A stretch of 63,906 bases of DNA, counting the filler, from Collodictyon triciliatum (lineage: Eukaryota): NCBI GenBank assembly GCA_043381765.1. It is 6 parts of 6 records of this genome, joined end to end, with 100 filler letters (N's around TTAATTAATTAA, not from the genome) between each part and the next. Parts side by side here need not be neighbours in the genome. Positions count along the whole stretch, not along the records: positions 21,659 to 33,264 come from JBHJMP010002371.1; 5 more parts are not named here. One strand, written 5' to 3'. The position numbers and the translations under genes were made by a program. The notes below the pieces were generated by a model that was not told the DNA's origin, made no database searches, and was given only the letters and a program-made list of their open reading frames with translations. This document shows positions 6,916-56,405 of the stretch, piece by piece; position 1 is the stretch's first letter; each line of letters opens with the position of its first letter.

Positions 6916-9713
6916 TGCCAAGCTTTTTCTCTCTTGAAGCCAGAATATAATGAATTGGTTTACAGTTCTATTATCATGTAATGCTTTCCCTGTATTGCTC
7001 TGTGATTAATTGAAATTCATTCAAACAGGTTCCAAAACCATACCGATATTTTTGCTTGGGAGAGAGTATATCATGTCGGAGAAGAAGGATATAACGGACT
7101 CTATGGAGTCAGAACAAAAGAAATGTTCAGGTTGCTTCACAAAAGAATAATATTTTCATATCGCCTTTCTATACTGTGCCTTATGAACAAAAATATAAAT
7201 TGTAAGAAGTAATATAGACCTTTGAATCAAATGAATGGAAAAACATACAGACCTACCATTACACATGTGACAAACTGAAATTGCGATTATTATATATGCC
7301 TTTTTTTTTTTAAAAAAAAAAAAAGCAATTCTGAATCTTCAACATTAATCTATTTTTTTTAAAAAAAAACTACAGAATCTTGCTCACCAACACACGCGCA
7401 TGATTTTTTGACCTCATTCCGCTCAATTGTTTGGATAATGTATCGAAAGGTTCATCATTCATAACATATGAAAATCGTTGTGTACAGTATTGATGGCGTT
7501 CAAAGCATTTCTGACAGAATATCTATCCTTGAACGAAACAAAACATCATATTGTATGCCATATCGCCACTTAGGATTTCCCTCCTATTGGACCCGCGCTT
7601 TTCACAAGTGATGCTGGATGGGGATGTATGATACGAACTGGCCAAATGATGTTGGCACAGGCCTTCATCCGCCAATTCCTGGGAGCAGGTACATACAATT
7701 AGATTACCTAAACTGATTTATCTTGTTTTATTTTGACATGACAATTAATGAAAGTTTGGAATCAAATGGTTTGACGAATTGGTTTTTCTTTCATGTGTTT
7801 CTTTTTATTACTTTTCTTTTGTTTATTATATTCCAGCACATTCTACACATATCTACACAGCAGTTTGTACCTCAAATACTTTCACATACTAGACTGGAGC
7901 ATCGATAGGAACAGCGACATGAAAATATATGAGGAGGTCAGCAAACTACTGACGGTTATGGCGAGATGGATATTTCTATTTTTTTTTTCATAGCTTAATT
8001 ATATTTCGCCTCTTCTCCCCTTGAAAAGATACTCGGCTGGTTTCGAGACCATTCTGGTGCTTCATCACCGTACTCGATTCACAATATCCTCCACGTATCG
8101 GCCAATTACGGAATGGAGGCGGGCAATTGGTTCTCCCCTAGTTCAATCGGCAACGCTCTTCAGTATGTTAGCGTCTTCATCTGAAATTAATAATTACCAT
8201 TCGCATGCGGTAACATATATTATTTAATCTGGGTTCATGTCTATGAGTATGTTCTCATTCATTTGATGACAAAATGTCGGATCTTTTAAGTCAATTCCTT
8301 TCTGAACAAACATTAATCACGCCTGCAGGTTGTTGGTTAACTCGCACAACCCAAGAGGAATTGTGATGGTCATTTGCCGGTAATACATTTCGTATATATT
8401 TGTGCGTACCTATAGCTGTAGTAATTGATGAGACAATAAAAATTAAACTCACGCAGCTGATTTTATTTCAATCCCAACTTCCTTTCGTGTCTTTTTCAGA
8501 GACGGCTCCATCTATAAAGACCAAGTGAAGCAAACAGCGATGATATCAAACACATGGGCCCCCACTATTGTGTACCTACCTCTTCGCTTGGGACTTGATG
8601 TCATAAATCCTCTATACATGCAACAGATATTACAGGTTCTTTCTATAGTATATATATGAATGTTGTCATCTTTAGTATTAGTGCAGAAGGATGAGCCTCA
8701 TCTATGTTTTTGTGGTTTTTTTCTCCATACATTATTTCACATTCTTTAATTCACCCTATGAATTTATTGATACAAAAGGTATTTCGTTGGACCCAAAGCA
8801 TCGGAATCGTCGGCGGACGCCCTGGTGCATCATATTACTTTGTGGGAGCTCAAGGTTCTTTTCCTATACCGTTGTTTGACCCTTCCATCCATTTCTGAAT
8901 TTTCATTTGAAGTTGAGATTTTATCGCCAAAGACCGTTCTGTTAAAAATATACAAATGTAACCAAAATGCGAAACATGTAAAAGTAACCAGCGATAAAGA
9001 TTATACTAAATACAATGTTGCAATTTTAAAATGAAGTTCATATCACTGTTTCAACAAATAGAAAACAGCCTCTATTATCTTGACCCGCATGTTGTCAAGT
9101 CGTCCCGAGGAGATACGCGTTCCATCATCGAGGTTAGTTTTCATCAGGGTTCTTTGCTGGATATCGCAATGATGAATTCCTTGGACATATTCTAAAAGGA
9201 GAAATAGCAAATTAAGAAATGAATAGTTAATATTAACAATCAATAAATGAAAACAAAAAGAACCAAGAAAAATCAGTAATTTAACTGTGGACGCGACATA
9301 CCCTCTTTCCTTCCAGTCATACAAGAGTCCGTGTCCACGCCGAATGTCGATTGGAGACCTTGACCCATCTCTAGCGATGGGGTTTCTCTGTCCAACAGAA
9401 CAACATTTTGATGACTTGTGCGACAAAATCACTCACGTAAGCGCTATGCCCGAAAGAATGTTTACAATAACCATTAGTATTCATGTAATTATTTTTCATT
9501 CAAAACCTTTTTATGTCAACATTCGCTTTAATTTACCACAAAGCTCTCTGGAACCCCGTTTGCCACTGTGTTTAACAAAATGCCTGGGTATGTTGCATCA
9601 TCCATGGCGCGAATTTCTCGAACCTCTTCAGCCGACCGAGACGTTCAAAATACTTGCGGATATACTATGGTTAATTAGACAGGATGCGGGGTGCACTGGC
9701 ACAGAGAAAATAA
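6916..9713 (+). CDS. ATG4: Autophagy cysteine protease ATG4 (multi-exon; 5' end lost in gap)
   Basis: Spliced exons give [46 protein letters not shown] (catalytic Cys), [51 protein letters not shown] (catalytic Asp/His) and [11 protein letters not shown]. The last exon is less certain. Confidence 0.95.
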
Positions 9714-9804
9714 GGGAGACGTAGGCCGACTCGCCCCTCCCAACACGGAATCTATACTTTATCAAACTTTTCTTGGTATATAAGCATAATACATATATAT
9801 AGTC

Positions 9805-9835: not shown

Positions 9836-9945
9836 TTTTACTTTTTTTTTTTTAAATTTTTTCCTTTTTTTTTTTCTTTTCTTTATCCTTTATTCCTTTT
9901 TNNNNNNNNNNNNNNNNNNNNNNNNNNNNNNNNNNNNNNNNNNNN

Positions 9946-9957
9946 TTAATTAATTAA
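9946..9957. other. Artificial scaffold linker TTAATTAATTAA flanked by N runs (also at 21603, 33309, 44959, 56608)
   Basis: The identical six-frame-stop 12-mer sits between ~44-N blocks at five places, and genes are truncated at these points. Confidence 0.97.
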
Positions 9958-10001
9958 NNNNNNNNNNNNNNNNNNNNNNNNNNNNNNNNNNNNNNNNNNN
10001 N

Positions 10002-18748: not shown

Positions 18749-21558
18749 ATTCTTTACAGATCACACTTAGCGGGATAAAATTAATTTTATAGAAACTGGT
18801 CTTCCATGCGCACTTTGGTTGACACAGTCGTATCGTCTGGTGAAAGTATATTTGGGCTGTCGTTGCTTTTGCTTCTTTTTCTGTTTATCTTTACCCTACT
18901 CGGAATACAGGTTAGCATAACAACCATAAAGCCCTTCCAAATTATGGCTCATTATCTATTCTTGCTTTTTTTTTTCTTATCTTCTTATATATTTCTTTTC
19001 TCTATGTCTTTCCCCTGTCTCTAATCCATATCATGACTCTTATTCTTGTTCTTATCTATCCAAATTCCAGCTTTTTGCTGGAAAGTTTGATTTTCCCGAA
19101 GGCAGGCCACGTAACCACTTCGACAATTTTTTTCAATCCTTTCTGACAGTTTTTCAGGTTATTATCCTAGATTACATCAAAGTCATATAAACAAGTCGAT
19201 GAATGCATATCTTATAATCATCGATAAATTCTCCATTTGAGTATATTATTTTGAGATACATCATATGGAATGCAGGTAGTCGTGATCGACAACTGGAACG
19301 ATGTCGCATTTAATGCCATGCGAGCGACCTCTAATTCATCTGTCCTCTTTTTTATTGTCCTTATTTGCATCGGAGATTGTATCAACACTTTATTTTGATA
19401 GTCATTACGTGACTTGGATTTATTGAAGAAATAATACTACCCTATGATTTTTATGCTGCTATTCCTTAACAATATCAAGACATCATACTCAATCTGTTTA
19501 TTGCCATCATTCTGGACCGATTTTCGGTGGAGACTGAGGAAAAGTGGGAGGATTTATCTGTCCAAAGGCAAATCAATAGAAGGTTGACAACAATAACGAT
19601 AGCCCAAGTTAAACATCAGGTATTTGTAACACATCTTCAACAGCCAAATAAATATTGTCAAAATAGGCGTGCAATTCTAAAACAAGAGGAAAAGGAGAAG
19701 TTCCAGAGACTACTTATAGAAGGTAAATACCAGGATATGATGTCTTCTTTTTCATCAGAATCTTAGTCAAACCATCCTTTACTCTACACAAGTTACCTTT
19801 TCCTTATTTCTTTTTGAATATTACTAGATTCACTCACTGAAGCCAGGAATCCTGATTCGTTGTCGATGAGGGTATACTCTTCTGTTGATATTATGTGACA
19901 TGGAAATCTATGGCGTGTATTTTCTAAAAAATTGTCAAACTGGTCGCCACTTTATTCTCAAGTTTCTCTTTTATGTTCCTTGTAATGAAGCCCAGTTATT
20001 GTTTATCAGTCATTGTTATTCCTACTTGGACATAATGAAAATTATATAGGTGATAAATCCTCAAGATTCAGGCAATATAGAAAAGCGAAATTTGTAAGCA
20101 TTTATATGTCGAATATATTACAGTTATAATTGTTTTGCTGCGTGATTTACTCCTACACAAAATGAAATTACCAATTTATCAGTTTGAAGCGGTACAGATT
20201 AATCAGATTCTAATCTTCAATTCAAAAATAAGCAGACTCGCGGACCGCTTGTTCTTTACGCCTGATGATGAATCTGTTCAGACAGAGTTTGTTAAACAGC
20301 ACTTATAACCATTTAATATTTACTTTATGTATAAATTAGAATATTAATGACGATAGCCCATCGTCAAAATATTAGTATTGAATATGAGTATGTAACCTTG
20401 TTCCAGGTACTAAAAACAGTACCAAAAATCAATTATCTTTTATAGCACAATACACTCAGAAAGCGATTCGATAAGATATAGCAACACCGAAACTCTCGTT
20501 TCTTTTCGCAGCTATTATCGCTCCAATCAGTTTTTTAATAGGTATATATCATTTTATCCAATTGCATCGCGATACTACTGTGCAATATTAACTGGGATAT
20601 TTTTCACGTAGAATTCATGAATTTCACAACCGCAATCTGCAAAACACATTCTACTTTATTCCTCCCAATAATTTCATTCGGCGACGCTGCATTTATTTAG
20701 TTTTCAATCCAATACTAGACTATGGTAATTGTATTAGTTTTACTGTTTTCGTATAATTTTGGAGGAATTTATACTTCTCCTTTTATGATAAAAATCTATG
20801 TGTATAGTTTCTCTTGTTGTCGTAATGCTCAGCTGCATAAATCTGGCCCTGGATAAACCGAGCCTCGATTCAGAAAGCGGATTGGCGAAGGTAACTCTCG
20901 GTGTGCTGTAGGCACCAAATACCATCCATCCTTTATAGCAAAGACCATCATTTAACAGAAAAATTATATTATATGTTTCGATTGAAATACAGTTTATATC
21001 GACATCTGACCCAATCTATCTGGCCATCTTCATTGTAGAAATGTGCATTAAGGTTGAAAAAAATATTGTCAAGATTCTACGCAATCAATATTAATGTGAA
21101 AAAATTGGTTTATATTATTGCACATTCTTGTTTAGGAAAAAAGCTATTCAATTCTCTCTCTCTTTTTTTTTTTTTCTATCGCGAACAGGTCATCGCTCTT
21201 GGATTTGTATTTCCAAAATTTTCTTATTTAAAGTCAAAGTGGAATGTGCTCGATTTTATCGTTATAATCGTAGGTTTACATTCACTGGATATTAGAATAA
21301 TACTCCATAGCCTTTCATCTATACTGCCCGCGCAATGTAGTCTTTTCATTCAGAAAAAGTGTTTGATAATTTTCTCAGTTTTGCTTTGATTAATAGTTTG
21401 GAATTGTCGAGATAGCGTCCGGGGCGAGTCTGAAGGTATCATATTATACTAAATCTTTAAATGATACCTATTCTTAAAAGGGTAGAATATGTCAACGATT
21501 CTGATATATTCTCGTGTTGATTTAATCCCACATAGAGCATCCGATCCATTCGCCTACT
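13834..21558 (+). CDS. Four-domain voltage-gated Ca2+/Na+ channel alpha subunit (domains I, II and part of III; truncated by scaffold end)
   Basis: Exons give HPWFDHFIILTI.NCITLS, AYLKDNWNQLDFIIV, S4 FRALRILRPLKSLSRI, P-loop I FDNIGWATLVIFQCLTFEGWSDVMY, P-loop II FDNFFQSFLTVFQVVVIDNWNDV, IIS6 GDYIILNLFIAII and domain III YLKSKWNVLDFIVI. The start codon is approximate. Confidence 0.93.
18652..18747. repeat. (TGT)n intronic microsatellite
   Basis: Direct inspection. Confidence 0.97.
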
Positions 21559-21658
21559 NNNNNNNNNNNNNNNNNNNNNNNNNNNNNNNNNNNNNNNNNN
21601 NNTTAATTAATTAANNNNNNNNNNNNNNNNNNNNNNNNNNNNNNNNNNNNNNNNNNNN

Positions 21659-22350
21659 CCCGCAAGACCTTCCAAATCACCGCTCTCTAATGCTTAATAT
21701 CACCAATAGGGAGCTATGGATAGGCACACGCGCGGCAAAAGCTGGCAAAGTCTCCCAACAATGCACACTTTGCAGCAACTGTGATGAATCCATTGAGCTC
21801 ATATTTGTGCAATGTCCCTTCGCTCAAAACCTGCGCGAAACAGCCGGTGAAATTATTTGGCTGACACTCAAGACGGCTGCAGCTGTTGGCCCAATCCAGG
21901 CGATACTTGGCCCTCTGCAACAGCTGCGCCCAGATGCAAAAACATTCTGGGCAGTGACGCGAGGCCATTTGCTATGGACTATGTGGATAGCATGCATATA
22001 CTCACGCAAAGCAAAACTCACTGACCAGCCACCCATTCCTGATAACAGGTTGGATGACATCATACAAATCTCTTTCCTCAATAGCTTCCTTCGCCACCTG
22101 CACGTTCTCTACTACGCAGACTCTGTGAGAAGAGACATGTAGAAAGAGGCAAAGATATTCAATCTCGCCTTGTATCTCTCATGCAAGCACAAGACCCATG
22201 CTACAAGCCAAACCGCAGGATGCAATCCCTGATTACCGACTACTTCTTCGCCACCCGGCCACCAAGTAGCGTCCATGCAAACGATGGCTAGCGAACCAAA
22301 GCCAACATCTCCACCGTCCTGCACAAAATTGAAAGGAAGAATAAAAAATA
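21659..22350 (+). mobile_element. 3' fragment of non-LTR retrotransposon ORF2 (zf-RVT-like) plus 3' tail
   Basis: CTLCSNCDESIELIFVQCPFAQNL...LLWTMWIA matches the L1/Tx1-type CxxC..ETxxHLFxxCP and 'W..W' terminal motifs, with the His lost. It is intronless and ends in an A-rich tract. Confidence 0.7.
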
Positions 22351-22804
22351 TTTGGATAAAAAACAGAGGAAAATTTGTTATGAAGAGTGGCTTATATGTT
22401 GAAAGTGGAGAATAATTTTCGTCGCAAGATGGTCTTTTTTTCTATTTTCTGTCCTTCCAACAAATTATGAAGTCATCAACAAAAGCCAAGAAACCATATT
22501 TCCCAGAACAAAAATGAGCTGTGGACAAGACAGTGGAAAACCCCGGATTGTGTGGTTGGAGTTTTTGTGTTTTGGAAGGAAAGAAAAAGAAAAAGAAAAT
22601 AGAAATGAGAGAAAGTGTTCTCACACGCAGACTATTCTAACCGAGGTGATTCAGCTCCAACACGATTTCTGGTTGTGTTCGACACTTGTAAAAGAGCGGA
22701 TAGAGTTGTCGGGTCGATGAGAATACGCGCATTGCAGTTACTTCTCAAATCGATTCCGACGAGTCCTTTCAACTGTATATCTCAGACAAGGTTAACATCC
22801 TATT

Positions 22805-24170
22805 TCATTCCACTGGATGAGTCTTTTGAGGGGACAACGGGTCACTTTCCTTGCGTTTCTTGATGGGAGATTCAGACAAAAAGCGATACATCGTTGTTTG
22901 TCTGGAATTGTCGGAAGTGGCGCTTGACCGTCCCCTGGTTTCGGGACCATGCGTAGCCGGCAGTGGACTTTGCTTAATCAGGGTATAGCTATATGTTTGT
23001 GGTTTTAGAAACATACTCTCATGCTTGTTCGGACTGTCTTTGGTGTGTGAAGTTCCAAGCTTGGATTCGACTTGTGGTGTTTGCTCTTGCTCCTTGGTTC
23101 TCGGTGCAATGGGCTGGGGCAGGGTAAACGGACAATCTTTGGTGGGCGCTGGTTCTTGTGTTGCCTTCGCTTTGGAGTATCCTTTCGAATAAGTAACGAA
23201 GACTGCCTTGAGGCCTCCTATGTCAACCATATTCACGTCAGACTGAATGGGTAGTTTAAAGGGGGTTTCTTTCGGGGTTTGGAGATGCGCTGCTCTTGGG
23301 TCTTGCGATGTGCGGACTTGTCCAGTGTTGGCGGTGGAGGGCTCGAGTGCGAGGATTCTGAAGAGGAACCGAGATTTCCTTCCATGTCATCGTCGCTGTC
23401 GCTGTATGTACGTGTATCTGCTGTGAGTCTTGCGGACTCTGTTGTTGCCTGGCCTTGGCTTCCTTGACCCCTTTGCTGCTTGTCTGCTTGGCAGGTGTAT
23501 TTTTTTGCGGGATTTTTACCTGTCGTTCGTTGTTCGCGGCTGGCGGACGCTCTTTGAGGATGCGCTTTGGACACTTTTTGCCCATGACCGTAAACTTTGC
23601 AGGGAGCTGGTTCTTATGGCAAAGAGGCTTCACCACGGCCGTGTCTGTAAAGAAGCCTTTTGTCCTTTTTGATGTCTACGTGGGTCGGTCTGAACGGCTT
23701 CAGCTCCTCACGAAGGAGTTGCGGCCACACGTCCAGCGGTAGTTGGTAGAGCATCACCGAGGTCTCTGTTGGTTTACTTCTGCTGAAGCTGGTTATGATA
23801 TCGCCCAATCTTACCTGCTTCAGCTCCAGAAGCTTTCGGGCGTTTTTTGCAGTGCGGAAGCAATGAGGAAATGCCTTCGCTATCCGGTAAGTGCAATTGG
23901 ATGGACTCTTCCCAAAGTTTGTTCGCTTTCAAGAAGGAGGCGAGCGCATCTGTGAGCCTGCAAGCCTTGTTCTTGTTATAAACGACTTGCTCGACACTAT
24001 ACAAAAATACTGTCCGCTCAGACAGACTTGCAGGCGGCTTCCTTGCACGGGTTTTCTTAGACTTACGTGCAACTCGGGGGTTTCTGCGCCAGTGTTGGAA
24101 CCAGAAGAGCTGGCTGCAACTTGCAAAGCCTTCGACGTGTCCCGATTTGTTTCATCCATCAAGCGTTAGA
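22805..24170 (-). mobile_element. Frameshifted LINE ORF1-like (RRM-type) relic
   Basis: A chain of overlapping intronless ORFs gives TSVMLYQLPLDVWPQLLREELKPF...RHGRGEA..LPAKFTVMGKK (RRM-like pattern) followed by a basic low-complexity tail. Several frameshifts and stops are present. Confidence 0.35.
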
Positions 24171-25970
24171 AGCTTGATTGAAAATCAGGCGCGGGAACTA
24201 AAACATAAAATAGTTGAAATTGCACTGATTGTCTTGATATGCTCCTCTCCTTGAGGAAAAGATTGTAGAAAATAATTATTAATACGGCTCATCTATAAGT
24301 TGGTGTAGGAGACTTCTCCCAACGCGCATTCTTATTTTTTTCGGATAGACGACTTCTCTTCCTCAGTGTGAAGAATAAGAGTTTATAATTTATTTTACAG
24401 ATCCATAATTTTTAATTGAATTCTTCGATTACCAGGATTGAAAAAAAAAACTGCTCTGAGTTTTGAAAAAAATCAGCAGGTGTGTAAATACGAAGTAGAT
24501 CATTTCCACCATGACTATTGTCCCAATAAACAACAGTGATGGCTCTAGGAATCTATCAACTCACAGAACAAAAAAGAGGATGAGAGCAGGGTGGTTTATA
24601 AGAGGTCAACAAAGAATATTGTATGAGAAAGTTCACAAGCATGGACATAAATGAGCCGTTCAACATAGCTTTCTTTCTTTCTTATTCAACTCGAGTTAAG
24701 GTTTTTTTTTCTATACAATCCGTTGTTGTTATTGCACCGGTTCAAAGCAGTTATGTTTGTCGGATCCAGCTGCAGGCCAGCAGGGCACGGAAGCTGGATT
24801 CATGGCTCATTACTATGCACCCGAGAGAGACGAGAATAGTTCCGACTCCTTAGAGCTGCAACTACAAGGGGCCCTTACTTGGATCTGATTCAAAACCTTT
24901 TTTTTTTTATTCACGACAGACTTAGCTGTTGGCGCCCATGCCAATAATCATCTGATTCAAAACCTAATTTCCTTCAGTTATGGGTGACCACACTACCATT
25001 CCGTCCTCCTCTACAACATGGATGACAACAAAAAAAAAAACTTTCTTTTCATGCTTTTTCTTCGCTCTTATACCTCCTGTAACCCATGAATTAACTTTTA
25101 TTTTTTTTATAGTCTGGTGTATTCATAGTGGTTCTCCAAGGAGACCGGAAAGAATCATCTGAGAGGTTTGGATGTTCTCCGTTTACGATTTTGCTATCTT
25201 GTATGAATATTTCATAGGCGATTATGTTTTCATGGATTCTTTTAAATGACCTTATCTAGCATAGAAACCTTGCTGGCAGTACCTTCACATTCATAATCTT
25301 TTGATGACATTTAAACTATCACGAAATATGTATCTTTATAATGAATTAATTATAATGACAATCGCGTTTCTGTACGAAGACGAATTCATATGTATTAAGG
25401 ATATATGCTTCTGAAATATTAGTCCATTTTTTTTTGTGAATCCTAGGTTGTTACTGCTAATGCCTCTATGCAAATAATACTTTTATAATACTTTCTGGTT
25501 TTTGTTTGGTTTGGACGATTGTCTCCGATTCCAAAGTATCGGATTCTATAATTGTATTCATATCATTCGTTCTGTTATAGTCGCATTTATTTTATTGGAA
25601 GATGTAGTTGTAGACATAAATAAGAGGACATGCAATCGCATTGTGATTAAATGATTTGTCGTTATTGTCTATTAAAAAGTTATATATAAAACAATATTTC
25701 AGACACTTCCTCATCTACGAGTATTATTTTTTTTACATGATTGTGGTGGATTTTTATTGATCAAAACACAGATTGGATGTTTATATGTAATAAAAATGAG
25801 AAGCCAATCATTATGAATCAAAGAAAACCGTGAAGGCGTGAAACCAAAAAAAAAAAAACAATTTAATGAACCTATGAGTTTGAATATTATGACATTATTA
25901 AAATGACAATATCATAAAAACTGTAAATATGTTATTGATCTTGCTATCAATGAATTAAAATCTAACGCAG

Positions 25971-28900
25971 CAGGAATAATCGTGCTTTCTACCGGAATGA
26001 ACGTTGAAATTCGAAAGATTGCAATCAGTGTTGATGAGGTAGACACCTGGCGTAAAGAAACTTTTTTATTTCTTTTTTCATTAATAATAGAAGAATTCTC
26101 ATTTAATAATTATTCAGGTCTCTTCTAGCTGGACCTCTCATCAACCGGACCACTCAACAGCAGGAAAAAAAACCGTCACGAATGAAGTCGGTGGTGCAAC
26201 TGATTTTGTCAGGCTGATTAAACAGCTCTTCGATGCTTGTTCTGGTGCGTACAAACCACCCAGGTCTTCAGTTTTTTCCTTTTCTTTTTTCTTTCTTTCA
26301 AATTCATGTGGTTATTTTATTATCATTACTGTCACCCTATAAATAATCGCATGAATGAAATAGCCCTTTCCTTTTGGACGAAGTCTGCGAAGGACCGCAT
26401 AAGGCGAAGATTCGAGAAGAAATTCGAAGCGGGCTCATGACAGAGTCAAGAAATCTATGTAAATCTTAATTCATTACTAATTTGGTATTCACATCAACTG
26501 TTCTAATGAACACCAAATATAAGCCACTGTCATAATTTAATGAAAAATGTTTCGATGATAGGCGAGTATGAAAGAAGCGGTCAAACTGCGATGAAGTCAT
26601 CTCCACCAGATTACCTTGGAAGGGGATTGTGCTCTGAGCTCGCTATTCCTCCAAACATCGATCCGAACATTCTGAATGATGAAAATTGCTTCAACGAATC
26701 TGTCAGTCATGCATTTCGCAGTGATGGAGTATGTGAGTTGGGTCCCAATCTCAGAGGGGGAGGAAATGCTTCGTCACGAATGGCCCGCTCCAATGCAAGC
26801 ACCCCATCGCAAACACCCGGCGCCCCATTGCGAACACCCAGCGCCCAACCCGATTCATCATTCGACGTTCTCGAAATTCTGTCCAAACTCAACGAGGCCT
26901 ATCAGTCGACTTCAGCAAACTCAACACCTGGTCAGTTACCAAACATATCCCTACAACTGACTCAGGTGCTGGCGTCTCAGTTATTAATGAGTCCTACCAA
27001 GGAAGAAGATATCAAACTCGTTGAACGCCTTGTTGCACTTCATATGTCTTTAGTAGATAAACAAGCTCAAACTGCTGAGAAACAAGCAGCCATCCAGACT
27101 CGAAGCCTACGAGAACAAGCTGACATACAGACTCAGAGCCTACGAGAACAAAATGAATCAAAGCAAACGCTGATTCAGAGCCTTATTGACCAGGTGTCTC
27201 GTCTGCCAGCATCTCAGCAAACTTCGCAAGTTATTGAATCACTGGTGCACGTTATTTCACCACGAGCAACATCATCGAGCTCTGGCCAAACAAATGCAGG
27301 TATACCCTCACCCATGTCGCAATCTCATGATAATGTTGCTGTCATTACAAGTCAACAATCCAGAGTTAACATCACTCCCACTGCTCAACCGATTCCAACA
27401 AATCCTGCTACACTTCAACAAAAACCTCATGATGTTTCGCAAAACCCACCTCAGCAAGGAGCAATGCCGGCAACTACGGCATCAAATCAGTCCGGAACAA
27501 ACCAATTTACGACGATATCTGTCGATAACTCAACAAAAATTCAACCGATATTGACTTTCAACGATTGGATATCTAGAACAATCGAGTGCGTCGAGACACC
27601 CACGAATGCATCTGAGCTTTCCAAAGCCATATCCGAGCAACGAGACCAACAATACATCAAGAGCGTTGACAAGAAAAGAGCTTTTCGCATAATCAAGCTA
27701 TTCATGAAGGAACAAACCGCTTGGGATGAGAGCTTGAATGAACTTACTGCACTGGCCCCGGCAGGAGACAAACTCATTTCGGAGAAGCTGATAACATCTA
27801 TTGGCACAATGATGGATAAAAAAATGGAGAAGCTAGACCGCTTGCTAGATGCTTTGAATATCGTTGTGGGGAACACACTGAAGGAGGATTTCGACCACAC
27901 GTTGCTAGCTCAAGTCCTAGATATTCTGATAGAGCGTGTCGGAACTCTTTTTTCTTCGGACGAGGCTTTATGTCAAAGAATATTGGATAGTCTGATTTCC
28001 ATCCTGAATTCGCTCTATGTTTCTGGCGCATCAGGAATCCCTGAAGAAAAATACAAAGGCTACAAGGAGACATTTGACCAAAGCTGGATTGATAAAAAAA
28101 TTGAGACTCGTGGGGAAGACATCGATAACAAGATGCAAAGTCAATATTTTCAGGCCAAGAAATCTTTGTTCTGTGAGCTACTAAAGAATATTGGCGATGG
28201 CCAGAGTCCAGTCGTGAAGAATCTGAAAATCGCTGGAAGAGTTGGACTCGGTTTGTTCAACGCTGCATCTGCTGCTTTCTCTTTCGACATCAGCGGCACT
28301 TTGGATTCATTGCAGGAAGTTGCTACCGCTGTTGGAGAAATCGATATCAAAAAGAGTTGGTTTACATTCTATCAAATGTTTCGAGTCAGTTTATTTATCA
28401 GTGTCGATGAGGCGAAAAAAGTATGGGATTCTCAATTTTCAGGAAAGAAAGATAAAATTGGAGAAACCCTGGCATTCCTTATCATCGACACGATTTTTGA
28501 ATGCTATCGACACACTGACAATGGTTCTGAGCGAAGAAAGGTCTACGAATTAATCGAGTCCATCACACATCATGAAAAATGGTTGAAAAGTGAGGTTATT
28601 AACCGATTTGTGGAAACAAAAAAGCTAGAAATGACAACATATAAGCCAAAAGAGTCAAAATTACCTACTGCACTCTTTGAAAAAGCTGGAAAAGACGAGA
28701 GAACAATTCAAGACATCATCGAGAATATCAAGGAGGAAACCATTCGAAATGAAGAATTCAAAAGTCGTTTTAACACTTACATCTCTGGTCAAGCCGAAAG
28801 AATTGTTGAGAAAGGAAAGGTGTTTGGTGCCCAAGAATACATCCTGGATTTCATTGCATCCCCAAAAGAAAAAGTACTGCTCATACTTGGGGATTCTGGA

Positions 28901-31900
28901 TCTGGAAAATCGCTTTTGCAACAGTTTATTATTCGATTGCTTTGGGAAAAGTATGAACATGGAAAGTCACCTATTCCATTGTATGCTGCACTTACTTCTT
29001 TGGTAAAGCCTAGAGAAAACGCCATAGAGGAACTGCTTCTTTCAGAGAGTAAAAACAGCTTCTACATCCCAGACTCTGATTTCCGAAAAGATCAAATCAA
29101 AGAACTGAAAAAGAAACAATTCATCATTTTCCTGGATGGATACGATGAGATTGAAGATAGTGGCAAATCTTTTTATATTTCAAATAAACTTGAAGGATGG
29201 CCCAACTGCAAGTTTGTGATTGGATGCCGAAAGCAGTTTTTGGACAAGAAATATCAGTATCAATCATTTTTTGCCCCCAAAGCTAGTCATGGATACTCTC
29301 TGGATGAAATATATCTGAGACCTTTTGAAAGTAAGCAAAGGTTGGAGTACTTCAACAAGTATGCTGAGAGAAATCCCATTGAAGGATGGGAAAATGGTGA
29401 AAGGTACGAGGAAGAGCTGAAAAAAATCAAGGAACTGGACGAATTGGCCGTCACTCCGTTTATGATTTTCATGGCAGCCACCACACTTCCGTCTATACTA
29501 AAGGAAAGAGCTGAGTTTACTTCAAATTTTAATGAAAAAATCATGAGAACAGATTTTCTGGACAGGTTTTCGAGAAGATGGTTCGAACGCGAAAGAGAAA
29601 AGCTTGAAAATAACTTGTCGTTAAAGCAAAAAATGCCAGAAGATTTACAAAGATTGCTTTGGAATAAGTGCAAAGACATCTCGGAAGTCATGTTCCAGAA
29701 AGGCCATCTTGCTTTGGAGTACGAAAAAGTTGAGGGAAAGGCAAAGAGGCATGAATATGACGAATTTTTCCATCCCAATCCAGACCATATGATTGATGGT
29801 GAGTTAACTTATTCTGTCTTCGTATTGCGATGTGCACCCATCAAGAAATCTAGTGCCACAACCTATGAGTTCCTCCACAAGTCCCTCTACGAATTCTTTG
29901 CTGCTGAATACATCAGAATTGAAATCAATGGTTCTGATGCGGAAAATCAAAGTTCTACCGAATCATCAACGGAAGCTCAAAATGTTGCATCTTCCTCTGA
30001 AGCCGCGAATTCTATTCCTGGAAAATCTGATGCGAAATCACCAAGTTTCAAGCTTTTCAATGCTGTTCATTCTGTGATGAAATCAAAAGTGAAGACGAAT
30101 GTTCTGGATAAAAAGCTTGAACCTGCTATTCTTCTCAATTTGAGTGAAAAAGTGAACAAAGATAAAGCCTATAAAGACAATCTGTTTTCAATCATCGAGC
30201 AATCTAAGAAAGATGCAACCAAAGCGCAAGCTGCATCAAATGCCATCACAATTCTGAATTATGCCGACGTTCCATTCAGTGGCAGGGATTTCAGAGGGAT
30301 TCACATTCCAAATGCCGACATGTCACACTCTGTTGCTGATGGTACTGACTTCACTGGTGCCAACTTGGAGGGTGTTTTATTTTATAATGCGTGCATTTCA
30401 AACTGTGTTTTTGATAATGCAAATATGAAAGGCGTTAATTTTGGTCGTTTGCCTTTGTTTTTGGGACACACAGAATGTGTCTATAGTGTTTGCAGCATTC
30501 AAGGACCGAAAGGTGAAAAGTGGTTGGCCTCTGGAAGTAAGGATAAAACAATACGTCTTTGGGATGTAGCCACAGGAAACCAAATCAAAACATTGGAAGG
30601 TCATACAAATTATGTTAGATACGTTTGCAGTATTAAAGGACCGAATGGTGAGAATTGGCTGGCTTCTGGAAGTGATGATAAAACAATACGTATTTGGGAT
30701 GTAGCCACAGGAAATCAAATTAAAATATTAGAAGGACATACAGAATGTGTCAATAGTGTTTGCAGTATTCAAGGGCCGAATGGTGAAAATTGGTTGGCAT
30801 CTGGAAGTAAGGATAAAACAATACGTCTTTGGGATGTAGCCACAGGAAACCAAATCAAAATATTAGAAGGACATACAGAATGTGTCAATAGTGTTTGCAT
30901 TATTAAAGGACCGAATGGTGAACACTGGTTGGCTTCTGGAAGTTATGACAAAACAATACGTATTTGGGATGTAGCCACAGGAAGCCAAATCAAAATATTA
31001 GAAGGACATACAGAATATGTCTATAGTGTTTGCAGTATTCAAGGACCGAATGGTGAAAATTGGTTAGCTTCTGGAAGTAATGGTAGATCAATATATATTT
31101 GGGATGCAGACACAGGAAATCAAATTAAAATATTAGAAGGACATAAAAGTGTTGTCAGTAGTGTTTGCACTATTCAAGGACCGAATGGTGAACATTGGCT
31201 GGCTTCTGGAAGTGGTGATAAAACAATACGTATTTGGGATGTAACTGCAGGAAATCAAATCAAAATCTTAGAAGGACATACAGGTGGTGTCAATAGTGTT
31301 TGCAGTATTCAAGGACCGAATGGTGAATATTGGCTGGCTTCTGGAAGTGGTGATAACACCATTCGTATTTGGGATGTAGCCACGGGGAACCAAATCAAAA
31401 ATTTAGAAGGACACACAGGTACTGTCAATTGTGTTTGCAGTATTCAAGGACCGAATGGTGAAAACTGGCTGGCTTCTTCTGGAAATAGCGATAGAACAAT
31501 ACGCGTTTGGGATGTAGCAACAGGAAATCAAATCAAAATCTTAGAAGGACATACAGGATGGGTCACTAGTGTTTGTAGCATCCAAGGACCGAATGGTGAA
31601 TATTGGTTGGCTTCTGGAAGTGAAGGTAGAAAAATACGTATTTGGGATGTAGCCACAGGAAACCAGATAAACACATTAGAAGGTTATTTAGGCCGTATCT
31701 GGGGTCTTTGCAGAATTCAAGGACTGAATGGTGAAAATTGGTTGGTTTCTGGCAGTAGTGACCCAATAATACGCATTTGGGATGTAGTCACAGGAAATCA
31801 AATCAAAAAATTAGAGGGTCATAAACGACCTGTCATCAATTTTTGCAGTATTAATGGACCGAATGGTGAAAATTGGCTGGCTTCTGGAAGTGTTGATGAA

Positions 31901-32881
31901 ATAATACGCATCTGGGATGTAGCCACAGGAAACCAAATCAAAACATTAGAAGGTCATACAGATTGGATCATGAGTGTCTGCAGTATTCAAGGGCCGAATG
32001 GCGAAAAGTGGTTGTCTTCTGGGAGTAGAGATAAGACAATACGCATTTGGGATGTAGCCACAGGAAACCAAATCAAAACATTAGAGGGTCATACACAATA
32101 CGTCAATAGTGTTTGCAGTATTCAAGGAACGAAAGGTGAAAATTGGTTGGCTTCTGGAGGTAGTGATAACACAATACGTATTTGGGATGTAGCCACAGGA
32201 AACCAAATCAAAACATTAGAAGGACATACAAATTGGATCATGAGTGTCTGCAGTATTCAAGGGCCAAATGGCGAAAAGTGGTTGTCTTCTGGAAGTGGTG
32301 ATAGTACGATACGTATTTGGGATGTAGCCACAGGAAACCAAATCAAAACATTAGAAGGACATACAAATTGGGCCAACAGTGTTTGCAGTATTCAAGGACC
32401 GAATGGTGAAAATTGGTTGGCTTCTGGAAGTATTGATTAGAGTAGTTTGCATATTTGGGGTGAAGCCTCAAGAAATAAAATACACAGCCTGAAAAAATCA
32501 GAAGCGACCTACAATGAGAAGAGCCAATTGGTCATGAAAGATAAACCAGAAGTCATCGCAGTATTCAATAGTACAAGTGATGCGATGAATATGATTGATA
32601 CAAGCAGAATAATGAACGTGAGAACTGTTCGGATTATCGGCCCAAGAATACTTGAAGCTGCGAATACTCGTATAAACAAAGCCGAACTGGGTGTGATGAA
32701 CAAGAAATTATTTCTGCAAGAAGGTGCTGCTTCCTTTGATGCGGACTTTGTTTCCTATTGTGAGCAGGGTAAGTTCACTAAGTTCCAGGCTCAAATGATG
32801 GCTGAATGCTATGAGAATGGATGGGGTGTTGAGAAGGACATCCAGAAAGCAGCTGAGTGGATACAGAAAGCCACATCTTGA
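25971..32881 (+). CDS. NLR-like STAND protein: spliced N-terminal domain, Q/S/P-rich linker, ARM-like helical region, NACHT, pentapeptide repeats, 15 WD40 repeats, in-frame TAG (32438-32440), C-terminal segment with SEL1-like repeat
   Basis: Walker A GDSGSGKS (~28889), Walker B FIIFLDGYDE (~29120), YEFLHKSLYEFFAA, AASNAITILN, pentapeptide stretch ~30275-30445 and 135-nt WD40 units 30461-32460. Upstream exons 25971-26038, 26118-26263 and 26364-26458 splice in frame to 26562. The true start is further upstream and undetermined. Confidence 0.93.
30461..32460 (+). repeat. Coding tandem array of 15 x 135-nt (45-aa) WD40 units
   Basis: Consensus LEGHTxxVxSVCSIQGPNGExWLASGSxDxTIRIWDVATGNQIKx. Unit 8 has one extra codon. 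Confidence 0.97.
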
Positions 32882-33364
32882 TAAGGTAAGTAAAATCAAA
32901 AATACATATTAATTTATGTTCCTTAATTATGTTTATCTTAGATGGAGAGATTCTCTGGGTTTTTTCAAGCAGACCTCAGCTTTTTCCCAGACGGACGCTC
33001 CATGAAAACAGAATAAAACCATAAAAATGAAATTAGAGCTGATGGATGTCAATTAAATCCTCTCTCTTTTTCTCTTTTTTCTCTTTTTTTCTCTTTTTTT
33101 ATTCTTTTTTCTCTTTTTTCTCTTTTTCTCTTTTTTTCTCTTTTTTTCTTTTCTTTTTTCTTTTTCTTTTTTATTTTTTATTTTTTATTTTTTATTTTTT
33201 ATTTTTTATTTTTTATTTTTTATTTTTTATTTTTTATTTTTTATTTTTTATTTTTTATTTTTTANNNNNNNNNNNNNNNNNNNNNNNNNNNNNNNNNNNN
33301 NNNNNNNNTTAATTAATTAANNNNNNNNNNNNNNNNNNNNNNNNNNNNNNNNNNNNNNNNNNNN

Positions 33365-33500
33365 ATAAAAAAACCCAATAAAAAAACCCAATAAAAAAAC
33401 CCAATAAAAAAACCCAATAAAAAAACCCAATAAAAAACCCAATAAAAAAACCCAATAAAAAACCCAATAAAAAAACCCAATAAAAAAACCCAATAAAAAA
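33365..33500. repeat. (CCCAATA5-7)n tandem repeat at scaffold start
   Basis: About ten 12-13 nt units seen directly. Confidence 0.9.
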
Positions 33501-33551
33501 AAAACACCAAAAAACTAAAACAGTGACCACTTCAGCAAGGCAGCAACAAGA

Positions 33552-36500
33552 ATGTCGTCACGCACGATTCAAGCTAGCCAACCGATCTGGGCCGGGTGCA
33601 ACACGTGCAGCACGACCCGTAAGAAATCAAATCCACAGATACCTTCTCTACCGGCTAATCCAGAGAGAAAAAAGACACTCAAATCTGGATAGCGTGCCGG
33701 TCTTTATTTTTTTTTCCCCCTTCCTCAACACACATATAATCATACTTTTGATCATTGAACACACAAAGAGGACTTTCGCAAAAAGTACGACCAGCTTTCC
33801 TCGAGAGCGCATCCTTCGGCGTTGATGAGCCCGCTTCTTGTTAGTATAAATGTTGCATTTCAATATGCGCGCCCGACTTCATCCTTTTCCCCTCTTGAGG
33901 AAAAAAAAAATAATACATTCCATATGAAAATATTGAAAATGAAGTCAAGCCCTTCTGTATTTTTTCTTCTTCCTTTTTTTCCATACTAGCTCTCTTATCA
34001 CTCACCAGAGTTGTGTATTGATAACTGTGTTAATGAAGTAAATATTACATACTGNNNNNNNNNNNNNNNNNNNNNNNNNNNNNNNNNNNNNNNNNNNNNN
34101 NNNNNNNNNNNNNNNNNNNNNNNNNNNNNNNNNNNNNNNNNNNNNNNNNNNNNNNNNNNNNNNNNNNNNNNNNNNNNNNNNNNNNNNNNNNNNNNNNNNN
34201 NNNNNNNNNNNNNNNNNNNNNNNNNNNNNNNNNNNNNNNNNNNNNNNNNNNNNNNNNNNNNNNNNNNNNNNNNNNNNNNNNNNNNNNNNNNNNNNNNNNN
34301 NNNNNNNNNNNNNNNNNNNNNNNNNNNNNNNNNNNNNNNNNNNNNNNNNNNNNNNNNNNNNNNNNNNNNNNNNNNNNNNNNNNNNNNNNNNNNNNNNNNN
34401 NNNNNNNNNNNNNNNNNNNNNNNNNNNNNNNNNNNNNNNNNNNNNNNNNNNNNNNNNNNNNNNNNNNNNNNNNNNNNNNNNNNNNNNNNNNNNNNNNNNN
34501 NNNNNNNNNNNNNNNNNNNNNNNNNNNNNNNNNNNNNNNNNNNNNNNNNNNNNNNNNNNNNNNNNNNNNNNNNNNNNNNNNNNNNNNNNNNNNNNNNNNN
34601 NNNNNNNNNNNNNNNNNNNNNNNNNNNNNNNNNNNNNNNNNNNNNNNNNNNNNNNNNNNNNNNNNNNNNNNNNNNNNNNNNNNNNNNNNNNNNNNNNNNN
34701 NNNNNNNNNNNNNNNNNNNNNNNNNNNNNNNNNNNNNNNNNNNNNNNNNNNNNNNNNNNNNNNNNNNNNNNNNNNNNNNNNNNNNNNNNNNNNAAAATAA
34801 AATAAAATAAAATAAAATAAAATAAAATAAAATAAAATAAAATAAAATAAAATAAAATAAAATAAAATAAAATAAAATAAAATAAAATAAAATAAAATAA
34901 AATAAAATAAAATAAAATAAAATAAAATAAAATAAAAATAAAAAGGGAAGAGTTAAAGCATGGTTTTGGTGTCATAATTTCGTTTTCTGGTGTGTGAATA
35001 GCTTACAACGACTGACTGCAAAATCACCTGTCATATATTTATTAAATAAAGGAGTCCCGTCGTGGATGCATCTGTTCGTCCATCCTTATTCAGCCAGCCA
35101 CCACAATCCACGCGCGTACCATCTCTGAATCACTACACAACAGATGAGAATGTCCGCAACTATCTTGAATATCGCAAATACTCCAAAGAGATGGCAAGAA
35201 TGAATCTATTACAACACGAATCAAGTACACGACCGCTTGTTACAAATCCCAACAGTTATGCGGATGTGCCCATTGAAAACAAATACCTACGCAATCAAAA
35301 TGATCATAACGCAGAGATCGATGCTTACATGAATCAACAGAAAATGTCTGACAAAATCAGTACGCGATGCCGATGTGAGCACGACCACCAAATAAATAGT
35401 GGACGCGACGTATCTGTCCAAGTAAATACAAAATCAGCTATTCAGCATGCAAGATACGAACAATATTTTTTATTTTAAAAAAAACATCATTTCGGTGCGT
35501 CTCTCAGAGTGTGTGCTATTTTCTTTAGAACATAATATTGCGCATCATATGGTGATTATTATACTTCATCTATCACTTAGACATTATGCGAGGCCAAAGT
35601 CCAAACAGATGACAAGATGTTTCAGAACGGAGCCGTCGACGTGATTCCTTATCCCTTTATCGCATATGCATCTGTTTAAAAAGGAACCAATAAATGAAAC
35701 CAGTCCAAATGAAATCAATATTGCATATGTTCATATTTGCATGTAGAAGAACCAACTAATTTTTTCATCCCTCAATCATGCAAGATATCAACTCCGCATA
35801 AATCGCCGCGTTTTAATATGCACAAATCCCAACCTCCTCGATGTAGAGAGACAAAGTGCACCGACGCCCGCATTCTGCACCGAGACAGTCTGCCCCTCAC
35901 GACATCGTGCGTGCGAGTCATGCAACAATCCAAACACAAAGTCAAAGCGACAATGGAGATACGCGCTCTTCTTGTTCGCAGCAAACAAGCACTTACAACC
36001 CGCAATCCAGCATCACACCAATCTCAAGCATCCAAACAAATACACTTCGGCCTGCAACGTCTCAAACGTCTCACGCATCGTCTTCATCATCCCTGGAGCT
36101 ATCTGAAAGCTCCAAATTGACTTGGAGAGAGGCTTCCGTACGGCAAAAGCCATCACGTAAAGAGAGCCCACGAGCTCATCCGCAGCAAAGCGTACTTCAG
36201 CGAAGAAAAGCAAATATACAATTACCTCAAAGCAAGACAAAAGGATGCCCTCAAAACCTGGAGATGCAACAATCGTCAAAATCCACAGCGGTGTCGTCGA
36301 AGGTGCAGCAAAAGCCTGTTATTGTGAAGGAGAAGCCTTCAATACCTGTCACAAAGCCTGATGTGGGGAGGTATGCAAAGCAGGAGGTAATCTTGTCCAA
36401 GAGTGATCTGTACCCTGGAAAAGACGATGATGTGCTTTCTGCACAAAGCTTCGACCCTGACCAGATGGACCAAAAATACCTGGACGAACTGGCCCGCTCG

Positions 36501-55700: not shown

Positions 55701-56405
55701 ACCTAGGAAGCTTGTTTTTATAATTTTCTTGGATGCATTGCTCTTCAAAATGAACTCTGTTGCTTGGCCAGAGGGGTCGATAATGAGAGGATAGCGGTGG
55801 AATCTGCAAATCATGTTTTGATTTTATATGGAAATCCGTTTGTGTAAGTTTGTGGTTTTTTTTTTTAAAAAAAAAAGGAAAGAATAAAATATTATAAATT
55901 AATAGAAAAGGACACAATTTAAAGACAGAAAGATATATCTCAATACAAATGAACTTCAATCTATATATGTCTGATTTATTGCTTCATTTGAGACGAGACT
56001 TTATCATGCATCAGGAGGTAATAAAGCCCACTGCAAATATTCGAACCTATTGAGGATTATTGCATTCTCTGTGCACAATTCGTCGGTCGGAAGAGCGTTG
56101 GCACTCCATGAGAGGCGCTCATCTGGATTGGACAAATACTCGATGACAGATAAGTCTTGGCGATGAGGGACTTTGTATTCCAGAAGAAAATCCTGCCATT
56201 TCTATGTAGAATAAAACAAAAACAAAAAAGACATAAGGCAAGAAATTGAGACGATTGTATCTCCCCTCCCCCAGAAAAGAATGGATAGGACGTGGAAGAA
56301 AAATATTTTTATTTTAAGAATGTGTGGAACCTGTATAGCAGATGTGCGATAATGCTGGTCGAGATAACCGCAGTATGTGCAGAACCCAGCGGCGATAATG
56401 ATATC
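49717..56405 (-). CDS. DYNC1H1: Cytoplasmic dynein 1 heavy chain, C-terminal part (AAA5-AAA6-C-sequence); 5' part beyond scaffold end
   Basis: [109 protein letters not shown] and terminal [11 protein letters not shown]. Confidence 0.97.
50728..50948. repeat. (AAGAAAG)n intronic microsatellite
   Basis: Direct inspection. Confidence 0.95.

Follow-up and report, generated by a model that had tools for sequence, protein, structure and literature searches.

The window, by which we mean the whole stretch of 63,906 nucleotides of Collodictyon triciliatum DNA analysed here, holds one long stop-free frame that encodes a predicted NACHT protein (Table 1). The longest N-free frame outside this gene measures 272 amino acids (167 frames of at least 90 amino acids were listed in the window), and window frames of 281–334 amino acids arise only by way of N gaps. 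In the earlier note the region 26562–32881 was described as one uninterrupted exon; a single long stop-free frame is indeed present, but it is closed by a TAG ahead of the conserved end. The first in-frame ATGs, at 26540, 26555, 26591 and 26780, are candidate starts. The exon start at 26562 and the spliced 5' exons from 25971 that the earlier note proposed are putative: a loose GT[AG]..AG enumeration yielded 518 open chains leading into the frame from the 5' side, and no 5' exon joint into it was found among the contigs of the runs compared with the window. No second copy of the protein was found within the window by tblastn.

Table 1. Features of the NACHT gene, in window coordinates. X1 and X2 are two small sequencing runs that behave as RNA.
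Feature	Position	Strand	Detail or basis
Stop-free frame	26510-32437	+	1976 codons; closed by TAG at 32438-32440
Low-complexity S/T/Q/P-rich N-terminal part	26510..27673	+	About 390 aa, open frame
Helical N-terminal domain, predicted all-helical	27674..28795	+	hhalign, AlphaFold2 model
NACHT NTPase domain	28874..29368	+	PF05729, aa 789-953
Walker A GDSGSGKS	28889-28912	+	aa 794-801
Walker B FIIFLDGYDE	29120-29149	+	aa 871-880
Post-NACHT helical region (NACHT-associated), up to AASNAITIL	29369..30229	+	Aligned full length with 5 family members in alignment A1; covered by family-search matches
Family motif AASNAITIL, then pentapeptide-repeat segment	30230..30454	+	Motif at 30230-30256
15 WD40 units of 45 aa each (135-nt period)	30455..32437	+	TRF; TAG cuts the last unit
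In-frame TAG	32438..32440	+	15th WD40 unit, column 29 (hypervariable; consensus K)
Tail: rest of degenerate last WD40 unit, conserved post-WD40 cap, one Sel1 repeat	32441..32878	+	Same frame, 146 codons
Sel1 repeat	32795-32872	+	PF08238, E 3e-7
TGA ending the conserved frame, then TAA	32879..32881	+	Sequence
3'UTR intron, 56 nt, GT..AG (GTAAGT...TTAG)	32886..32941	+	Contig joints
Approximate poly(A) addition site	33032	+	A-run loose ends, 3 contigs each in X1 and X2

Predicted modules and genomic setting

The order helical domain, NACHT, pentapeptide repeats and WD40 units, proposed earlier from the sequence, was borne out by Pfam and hhalign, and all the motifs quoted at that time are found in the translation. 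AQVLDILIERV, YFQAK, AGRVGLGLF... and KKSWF all fall inside the helical domain, and NKKLFLQEGA, which belongs to the post-WD40 cap, sits behind the in-frame TAG. The low-complexity part that precedes the helical domain has no Pfam match. The NACHT domain was matched by PF05729 at E 4.6e-8 (33.5 bits, with the cut-off at 26.7; model positions 2–165 of 167), and its GxxGxGKS and DGxDE residues are invariant across alignment A1. These agree with the Walker A (GxxxxGK[ST]) and Walker B (hhhhDGxDE) patterns of STAND/NLR-like NTPases. Pentapeptide repeats were recognised at amino acids 1251–1313 (PF00805, 28.7 bits against a cut-off of 20.2, with PF13599 at the same place); in the AxNAxTxL motif ahead of them the positions N481, A482, T484 and L486 are invariant in A1. 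Pfam scored the WD40 array at E 4.9e-127 in 13 stretches. The single Sel1 repeat is barely over its threshold (PF08238, 31.2 bits against 30.7). As far as sequence can tell, the protein thus has the tripartite layout of STAND/NLR proteins, with a helical N-domain, a central NACHT NTPase and a C-terminal part made of pentapeptide repeats and 15 WD40 units.

The AlphaFold2 model of the helical domain includes 17 helices and is of moderate confidence (pLDDT 65, pTM 0.67). Foldseek, run with this model against the PDB, returned 0 matches at E ≤ 0.001; it aligned only with designed helical or armadillo repeats, none of them above a TM of 0.27. The best score of an Atlas search with the domain, 0.78, is at noise level. 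A profile search of the PDB with A1 was dominated by WD40 and pentapeptide chains and is uninformative on the NACHT domain.

The surrounding genes are split, in line with the intron-dense setting that had been described: a heavy chain of cytoplasmic dynein has its final ~1040 residues spread over 7 tblastn blocks in ~6 kb of the minus strand. Searched with a dynein exon, the closest proteins reached at most 45% identity and were cnidarian or unnamed, and the Atlas gave only generic dynein clusters. An intron every 100–200 nt was, however, an overstatement, as dynein ORF pieces reach 217–241 amino acids. Exons of dynein, of an Atg4-like gene and of an ion channel are in the same window as the NACHT gene and were counted for host linkage. 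In codon usage the NACHT gene does not look like dynein, the one highly conserved host gene available, with a GC3 of 0.26–0.42 versus 0.42–0.63 in dynein ORF pieces and an RSCU correlation of r=0.20, both from a small sample in which the pieces include intron ends.

WD40 variation, transcripts and the in-frame stop

The WD40 array is homogeneous save at five columns per unit. TRF reported a period of 135 with 14.6 copies and 82% matches, and the mean identity among 12 units is 73% at the amino acid and 82% at the nucleotide level. Columns 5, 6, 8, 27 and 29 are hypervariable, each with at least 5 residue types; going by the general structure of WD40 proteins, these columns would lie on the top face of the propeller. 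When pairwise codon differences among the 12 units are counted, the five columns accumulate 293 non-synonymous versus 9 synonymous differences, and the other 40 columns 496 versus 423. Joints in paralogue contigs skip or repeat WD40 units, so that the number of repeats varies between paralogues.

Units that are highly alike, with variation confined to a few columns, are the pattern of the HNWD type. The HNWD/NWD proteins of Podospora anserina (HET-D, HET-E; PMC1805685), which are fungal NACHT-WD40 allorecognition NLRs, likewise have a NACHT domain followed by an array of near-alike WD40 units, het-d and het-e have the same focused variation, placed in a few columns right behind the GH and near the Asp of the S-x-D-x-T turn, and paralogues differ in repeat number. 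The fungal proteins differ in having a HET N-domain (in HET-D/E) and 42-amino acid units, and in lacking both the pentapeptide segment and the Sel1 tail.

Transcripts were sought in X1 and X2, whose RNA nature is only a guess from their behaviour, and in X5, a lake metatranscriptome. Contigs with 0 differences to the window cover 26893–27380 (a 489-nt contig), 29885–30090 and 32619–32738 in X1, and 28735–28885 and 29169–29319 in X5; stretches of the gene that lack contig cover carry no weight either way. Up to 7 contigs of X1 overlie one place of the NACHT gene, and close paralogue transcripts are 90–99% identical to the window. The joint 32879->32940, which marks the 3'UTR intron, occurs in 2 X1 contigs and 1 X2 contig, and further joints leave from 32872; by the letters between the joint ends, the paralogue transcripts have a TAA where the window has its TGA. 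Many paralogues thus exist in related organisms, on spliced and polyadenylated transcripts.

These transcripts, with their GT..AG intron in the 3'UTR and their poly(A) tails, exclude the contaminant scaffold that the earlier note had named as a danger to its claim. That the NACHT stretch is a bacterial or symbiont contaminant, or the product of a chimeric scaffold join, is very improbable to us, even though the block that holds it (21659–33264) is bounded by N runs and no recognisable host gene was found within this block. The nearest relative is a complete ORF of a eukaryotic transcriptome, none of the bacterial copies compared exceeds 35% identity, and the GC content of the stretch, 0.39–0.43, is inside the range of the window (0.23–0.51).

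The TAG, if real, would remove the end of the last propeller blade, the conserved cap and the Sel1 tail, and for this reason the window copy may have been inactivated recently, or be a null allele, in a family that is otherwise active. Somewhat short of even odds, we would say, is the alternative that the codon truncates nothing in reality, whether because of a mistake in sequencing or assembly, because strains differ there or because it is read through, and that an intact protein of ~2122 amino acids is encoded. Past the TAG the frame stays open for 146 codons, for which the chance in random sequence is about (61/64)^146, or ~1e-3, and these codons remain collinear with the post-WD40 parts of the two closest relatives, P0005 (BLASTP E 2e-17), which carries several Sel1 repeats where the window has one, and P0004 (E 4e-11). 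The TAG is also one base off AAG, the consensus K codon class at column 29, and the draft assembly has 16 N runs in the window. This alternative is countered by the last WD40 unit itself, which, the TAG aside, has many differences from the consensus, and by the analogous fungal family, for which PMC1805685 describes pseudogenes with stops inside WD40 units. None of the runs covers position 32373 with the window's own letter, nor the TAG with the window's own haplotype. Reading the codon as sense does not tellingly extend conserved frames elsewhere in the window, and a reassigned code is improbable with a single TAG among the 2123 codons here; alternative genetic codes were rejected on the former ground. 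Removal of a 36-nt GT..AG stretch would restore the frame but is matched by no contig joint and is shorter than the observed 56-nt intron. Mini-introns of 11 or 16 nt around the TAG were rejected on inspection by eye, as both break the frame.

Relatives in protists, fungi and bacteria

The family search returned 3227 representatives at E ≤ 1e-3, 439 of them at E ≤ 1e-30. Of 154 sequences tested, 98 have a Walker A followed, 300–800 amino acids on, by the motif [AS][AS]N[AS][ILMV]T[IVL]L. NACHT-PPR-WD40 (PPR, pentapeptide repeat) NOD-like receptors are described from Mortierellomycota and Mycoavidus cysteinexigens in PMC11291939, and their long helical N-domain is named NLR_Helical in PMC9815663. 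Kinship with this family, suspected from the motifs, is upheld by a match to Linnemannia zychae EC991_003396, one of only 3 matches in the protein search (27% identity), and by the N-domain, which hhalign aligned with those of Mortierellaceae and Mycoavidus at 97% probability (353 columns, 14% identity; E 8.5e-11 for this single comparison of 3 protist-type with 20 Mortierellaceae/Mycoavidus-type N-termini). It is on this homology to Linnemannia and Mycoavidus-type N-termini that we equate the helical domain with NLR_Helical.

The shared order runs from the helical N-domain through NACHT, AxNAxTxL, pentapeptide repeats and WD40 units to the cap ..N..LL.Q.GA, and as judged by sequence comparison all modules, the helical N-domain and the post-WD40 cap among them, are homologous to those of the Mortierellaceae/Mycoavidus family. 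Identity over the NACHT-PPR part is 27–32%. Unlike that family, the window has a 45-amino acid WD40 unit with the insert ..IQGPNGENW.., a low-complexity front of ~390 amino acids and a Sel1 repeat after the cap, and its host is a non-fungal, intron-rich eukaryote. In the literature searched, the architecture was not reported outside Mortierellomycota, Pezizomycotina and Mycoavidus.

A NACHT phylogeny, as the earlier note had suggested, groups the window with P0004 and P0005 (SH-like support 99 in FastTree with 105 rows; SH-aLRT 97 in IQ-TREE under LG+C20), but places it outside the Mycoavidus/Linnemannia clade and gives it no resolved bacterial sister. The IQ-TREE tree comprises 74 rows and 519 columns, is unrooted and has most of its rows without taxon label. 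The Mycoavidus/Linnemannia clade, which excludes the window, has support of 100 in both trees (68 rows in FastTree, 28 in IQ-TREE). P0005 comes from a protist transcriptome, as a Trinity ORF that EukProt labels 'complete'. The window's special 45-amino acid WD40 unit and its Sel1 tail recur in P0005 and in P0004, and identity among the three is 34–36%. By its sequence features the window gene shares the pentapeptide segment, the AxNAxTxL motif and the long helical N-domain with the Mortierellomycota/Mycoavidus family, but it stands outside that family's clade.

Bacterial genomes hold many members. In an alignment-based scan the family matched 43 times in a gammaproteobacterial MAG of 3.0 Mb and 211 times in a Mycoavidus MAG that has a 2.96-Mb scaffold, and many of these matches are frames of 1200–3000 amino acids free of interruptions; scanning the genome contigs with a single protein gave no match, and a metagenome scan with the tail gave only an unrelated bacterial TIR-Sel1 protein (L020). 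Of the rows compared, the one most identical to the window (35% over 498 columns) is from the gammaproteobacterial MAG (genome G001). The tandem cluster of this MAG (locus L002, C2:1,147,642-1,225,437) shares the NACHT-PPR-WD40 core with the window and differs in its short N-terminus (Walker A at amino acids 87–113), without a helical N-domain, and in the absence of a Sel1 tail. Twelve of the 14 tandem frames have a Cys-a-a-X end, the MAG's ends of this kind being CVIS, CSRM, CCVM, CSLM and CSIM; the MAG has a second cluster, of 4 frames, none with such an end. In view of CaaX prenylation and of Legionella CaaX effectors, ends of this type are presumably a eukaryotic lipidation signal that bacteria cannot use themselves.

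Origin and possible role

Our main reading, to which we give a probability of about 0.6, is that the window holds a nuclear gene of a freshwater eukaryotic microbe, belonging to a STAND/NLR-like family with helical N-domain, NACHT, pentapeptide repeats and WD40 units. Within the known NLR-like family its sequence marks it as a new eukaryotic branch.

How the branch arose can be read in several ways. The earlier note put forward that the core was acquired horizontally or retroposed. It is possible, with a real but minority chance, that a protist lineage took up the core from a bacterium, an endosymbiont or their relatives and domesticated it, which would explain the missing introns: the 1976-codon frame has none, while the dynein gene in the window is broken into at least 7 blocks, and the codon usage of the frame is unlike that of the dynein pieces. 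The family is hugely expanded in the two unrelated proteobacterial genomes, of which the gammaproteobacterial one has the copy most similar to the window among those compared, and PMC11291939 argues for such a transfer into Mortierellomycota. The tree names neither donor nor direction, and transfer from eukaryote to symbiont is an equally open course. The window's clade is nested in no bacterial clade and forms a separate long branch beside a polytomy (19 of 71 inner branches are open in IQ-TREE), most rows lack a taxon label and the tree is unrooted. The clade's three members are so dissimilar that any transfer would be old, which weakens the argument that introns had too little time to accumulate. 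Repeat arrays that evolve by unequal crossing-over also commonly have long exons free of introns.

Unlikely, in our estimate, is the opposite course, by which the family would be eukaryotic in origin or use, intracellular bacteria would have copied it as injected 'eukaryote-like' effectors, and the window would hold the vertically inherited host version. The CaaX ends of most tandem frames, the long ankyrin array of P0003, which groups with the gammaproteobacterial copies, and midpoint rooting, which leaves the protist clade outside all bacterial rows, speak for it. Such rooting is unreliable on long branches, however, and the end branches of P0004 and P0005 exceed 1.8; CaaX ends tell where bacterial proteins act, not where their gene came from, and they are missing from the second cluster. 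Similarly doubtful is a broader picture in which one helical-NACHT-pentapeptide-WD40 family circulates between intracellular bacteria and their eukaryotic hosts, the pairs being Mortierellaceae with Mycoavidus and freshwater protists with gammaproteobacterial symbionts. The protist copies would then have multiplied into an expressed receptor repertoire that keeps diversifying, its WD40 faces hypervariable and a Sel1 tail added, parallel to fungal allorecognition NLRs, and the bacterial copies, many of them CaaX-ended, would be injected mimics or decoys acting on the same host pathway.

An immune role for this putative receptor is a proposal drawn by analogy from the HET-E/NWD proteins of fungi, the NLRs of animals and the NACHT proteins of bacteria. 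By that analogy, two WD40 propellers would bind a ligand, either non-self or a guarded host protein, via their hypervariable face; binding would free the NACHT module for nucleotide exchange and oligomerisation, and the clustered helical N-domains would then trigger a downstream response, possibly cell death.

Much work has gone into the NLR-like receptors of animals, plants and fungi and, more recently, into those of bacteria; to our knowledge very little has been described for free-living protists. With its many transcribed copies and its focused WD40 hypervariability, the present family bears on the repeated origin of diversifying intracellular receptor repertoires. Its link to endosymbiont genomes bears on the way in which gene exchange between host and symbiont may seed such repertoires, and the CaaX-ended bacterial copies on how symbionts may deploy look-alikes against them.

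Domains and relatives of the gene

The gene is carried by a stop-to-stop frame of 1976 codons. Of the 167 frames in the window that reach 90 aa, the longest N-free one outside the gene encodes 272 aa, and the few of 281–334 aa consist of N gaps. All motifs quoted in the earlier note were found in the translation, including intact Walker A and Walker B sequences. At the start of the gene, loose rules for the 5' exons proposed from 25971 allow 518 open spliced chains.

Features of the window and of the predicted protein
Feature	Position	Strand	Details
Atg4-type peptidase exon	9251–9721	+	single exon; matches end of Peptidase_C54 (Atg4) domain
Ion-transport protein exon	21039–21386	+	single exon; matches part of ion-transport domain
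Stop-to-stop frame	26510 to 32440	+	closed by TAG 32438–32440
NACHT	aa 789–953	+	Pfam E 4.6e-8; 33.5 bits, cut-off 26.7; model positions 2–165/167
Walker A	28889–28912	+	GDSGSGKS
Walker B	29120–29149	+	FIIFLDGYDE
Pentapeptide repeats	aa 1251–1313	+	Pfam, above curated cut-off
WD40	13 stretches	+	Pfam E 4.9e-127, above curated cut-off
Final stop, TGA	32879–32881	+
3'UTR intron	32886–32941	+	56 nt, GT..AG
Poly(A)	behind 33032	+	runs of A in contigs
Simple repeats	33040–33560, 33998–35002		T-rich and TTTTA-type, long (frames FYFILFYF...)
Cytoplasmic dynein heavy chain, C-terminal third	49957–56405	-	at least 7 blocks; AAA_9, Dynein_heavy, AAA_lid_11, Dynein_C

A word-indexed search returned only three proteins (7999 scored candidates), among them EC991_003396 of Linnemannia zychae, and an exhaustive profile-free search returned 3227 representatives at E ≤ 1e-3, 439 of them at E ≤ 1e-30. 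The top two matches, P0004 (36% identity) and P0005 (35%; a complete ORF from a EukProt transcriptome), alone share with the window protein an unusual 45-aa WD40 unit (..SVCxxxGPxGExWLASGS..), the helical N-domain, a post-WD40 cap and Sel1 repeats. The N-domain aligns over 353 columns with the N-terminal parts of 20 proteins of Linnemannia or Mycoavidus type (hhalign probability 97%, E 8.5e-11) and, by this profile comparison, is homologous to them. Its AlphaFold2 model, predicted from 9 sequences, is all-helical (17 helices, pLDDT 65, pTM 0.67); it had no PDB match at E ≤ 0.001, only designed helical/armadillo repeats at TM ≤ 0.27.

The resemblance to Mortierella and Mycoavidus proteins named in the earlier note was correct, as judged from the L. 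zychae match, the N-domain homology and two papers. One describes 'NACHT-PPR-WD40' NOD-like receptors of Mortierellomycota in common with Mycoavidus (PMC11291939), and the other 'NLR_Helical', a long alpha-solenoid N-domain of Pezizomycotina, Mortierellomycetes and Mycoavidus (PMC9815663). No report of the helical-NACHT-PPR-WD40 architecture in a protist was found in the literature searched, which includes few of the subscription journals.

The in-frame TAG, transcribed paralogues and genomic setting

The frame had been described as open through to 32881, but it is broken by the TAG, which occupies one of the hypervariable WD40 columns, where the consensus is K. A further 146 codons follow in the same frame. 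By its sequence, this stretch clearly belongs to the gene, since it supplies the remainder of a degenerate 15th WD40 unit, contains the cap motif NKKLFLQEGA and a Sel1 repeat (PF08238, 31.2 bits against a cut-off of 30.7), and is collinear with the post-WD40 parts of P0005 (E 2e-17) and P0004 (E 4e-11). At position 32373, near the TAG, all contigs of the compared runs differ from the window, and therefore the window's own haplotype has no coverage there. Reading TAG as a sense codon gave no convincing extension of any other frame, and short GT..AG removals around it either broke the frame or had no supporting contig joint. The window's copy carries a single putative in-frame stop.

Two small runs, which are only guessed to be RNA and come from related organisms, have contigs of many copies that are 90–99% identical across the WD40 array and tail, with up to 7 contigs at a single place. 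Contig joints skip or duplicate whole WD40 units and remove the 3'UTR intron, and behind 33032 there are runs of A. Pieces corresponding to 26893–27380, 29885–30090 and 32619–32738 have no differences to the window, as is also the case for two 151-nt pieces of a lake metatranscriptome. Based on these copies, joints, A runs and identical pieces, the family is eukaryotic, multicopy and transcribed. Bacterial contamination is dismissed on the spliced, A-tailed multicopy contigs. In run X2, a 370-nt contig brings 26120–26263 and 27016–27226 together in opposite orientation; it probably reflects chimeric assembly within the run.

The Atg4-type, ion-transport and dynein exons identify the scaffold, from their sequence matches, as eukaryotic. 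The C-terminal ~1040 residues of dynein are split into 7 tblastn blocks across about 6 kb, so that the 5.9-kb frame without introns is a real contrast, but the proposed intron every 100–200 nt was overstated. The best database relative of this dynein is just 28–45% identical, and the host lineage is therefore divergent. GC3 is 0.26–0.42 in the gene against 0.42–0.63 in the dynein pieces (r=0.20), a codon-usage difference that speaks only weakly to origin in either direction. Five pairs of 44-N runs with 12 bases between members (9902–10001, 21559–21658, 33265–33364, 44915–45014 and 56564–56663) recur about every 11.65 kb, at the filler between parts; the remaining N runs (68–739 bases) are irregular, with simple repeats at their flanks. 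Directly 3' of the site of poly(A) addition lie the T-rich/TTTTA repeats, which adjoin assembly gaps.

Bacterial copies, phylogeny and origin

When prokaryotic genomes were scanned with an alignment, at least 19 loci emerged from 600 candidate stretches; full-length matches, among the loci listed, came from Mycoavidus MAGs and one gammaproteobacterial MAG chromosome. Copies number 211 in a Mycoavidus MAG and 43 in the gammaproteobacterial MAG, and both genomes contain dozens of uninterrupted 1200–3000 aa frames on multi-megabase contigs. Besides dozens of full-length copies, scaffold C1 of the Mycoavidus MAG G002 has many short matches to the last ~160 NACHT-PPR profile positions (motif and pentapeptide), which may represent proteins with the PPR-WD40 part but no NACHT.

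The NACHT-PPR region was used to build two trees, one with FastTree (105 rows) and one by a quick IQ-TREE search under LG+C20 (74 rows, 519 columns), for which the large clade was cut from 68 rows to 24; 56 of the 154 hits, whose Walker A/motif pair was unmatched by regular expressions, were left out of both. The window protein groups with P0005 and P0004 (support 99 in FastTree, 97 in IQ-TREE). It falls outside the Linnemannia and Mycoavidus clade (68 and 28 rows, respectively, support 100 in both). The remaining rows form a polytomy that includes at least three separate groups from the gammaproteobacterial MAG, with 19 of 71 inner branches open.

Horizontal transfer into the protist lineage is possible, but the trees point to no donor or direction, because the window clade stands on long branches, the trees are unrooted, the remaining rows lie in the polytomy and most rows have no taxon label. 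The reverse direction, from host to symbiont, is also on the table. In the gammaproteobacterial MAG, the region C2:1,147,642–1,225,437 (loci L034–L038) holds 14 same-strand NACHT-PPR-WD40 frames with one other frame interspersed, and 12 of the 14 end in Cys-a-a-X (CVIS, CSRM, CCVM, CSLM, CSIM); none of four frames in a second cluster of this MAG does. CaaX boxes are eukaryotic prenylation signals and are present on effectors injected by Legionella. These termini suggest that the bacterial members act within a eukaryotic host cell, where they would be delivered and lipidated, and host-to-symbiont transfer therefore stays a candidate. The gene itself is a true eukaryotic representative of an NLR-like family already known, in which it stands on its own branch and has a Sel1 tail.

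The WD40 array and a possible mechanism

The 15 units of the array would suffice for two seven-bladed propellers and a closing strand, and their identity to each other is 73% in protein and 82% in DNA (TRF: period 135, 14.6 copies, 82% matches). Variation clusters in five columns: three after GH and two flanking the Asp of the S-x-D-x-T turn. Counted over the 12 units that are exactly 45 aa long (excluding the first, the 46-aa and the truncated units), these columns show 293 non-synonymous and 9 synonymous pairwise differences, and the remaining 40 columns 496 and 423. The same signature of few variable columns in homogeneous units is described in PMC1805685 for Podospora het-d/het-e, a family with known pseudogene members, in which a few interaction-face residues are under diversifying selection and concerted evolution keeps the others homogeneous.

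By analogy, the propellers would sense a ligand, the NACHT domain would then switch and oligomerise, and the helical N-domains, thereby brought together, would signal. The gene is part of an expressed, diversifying multicopy family, for which we infer an immune function.
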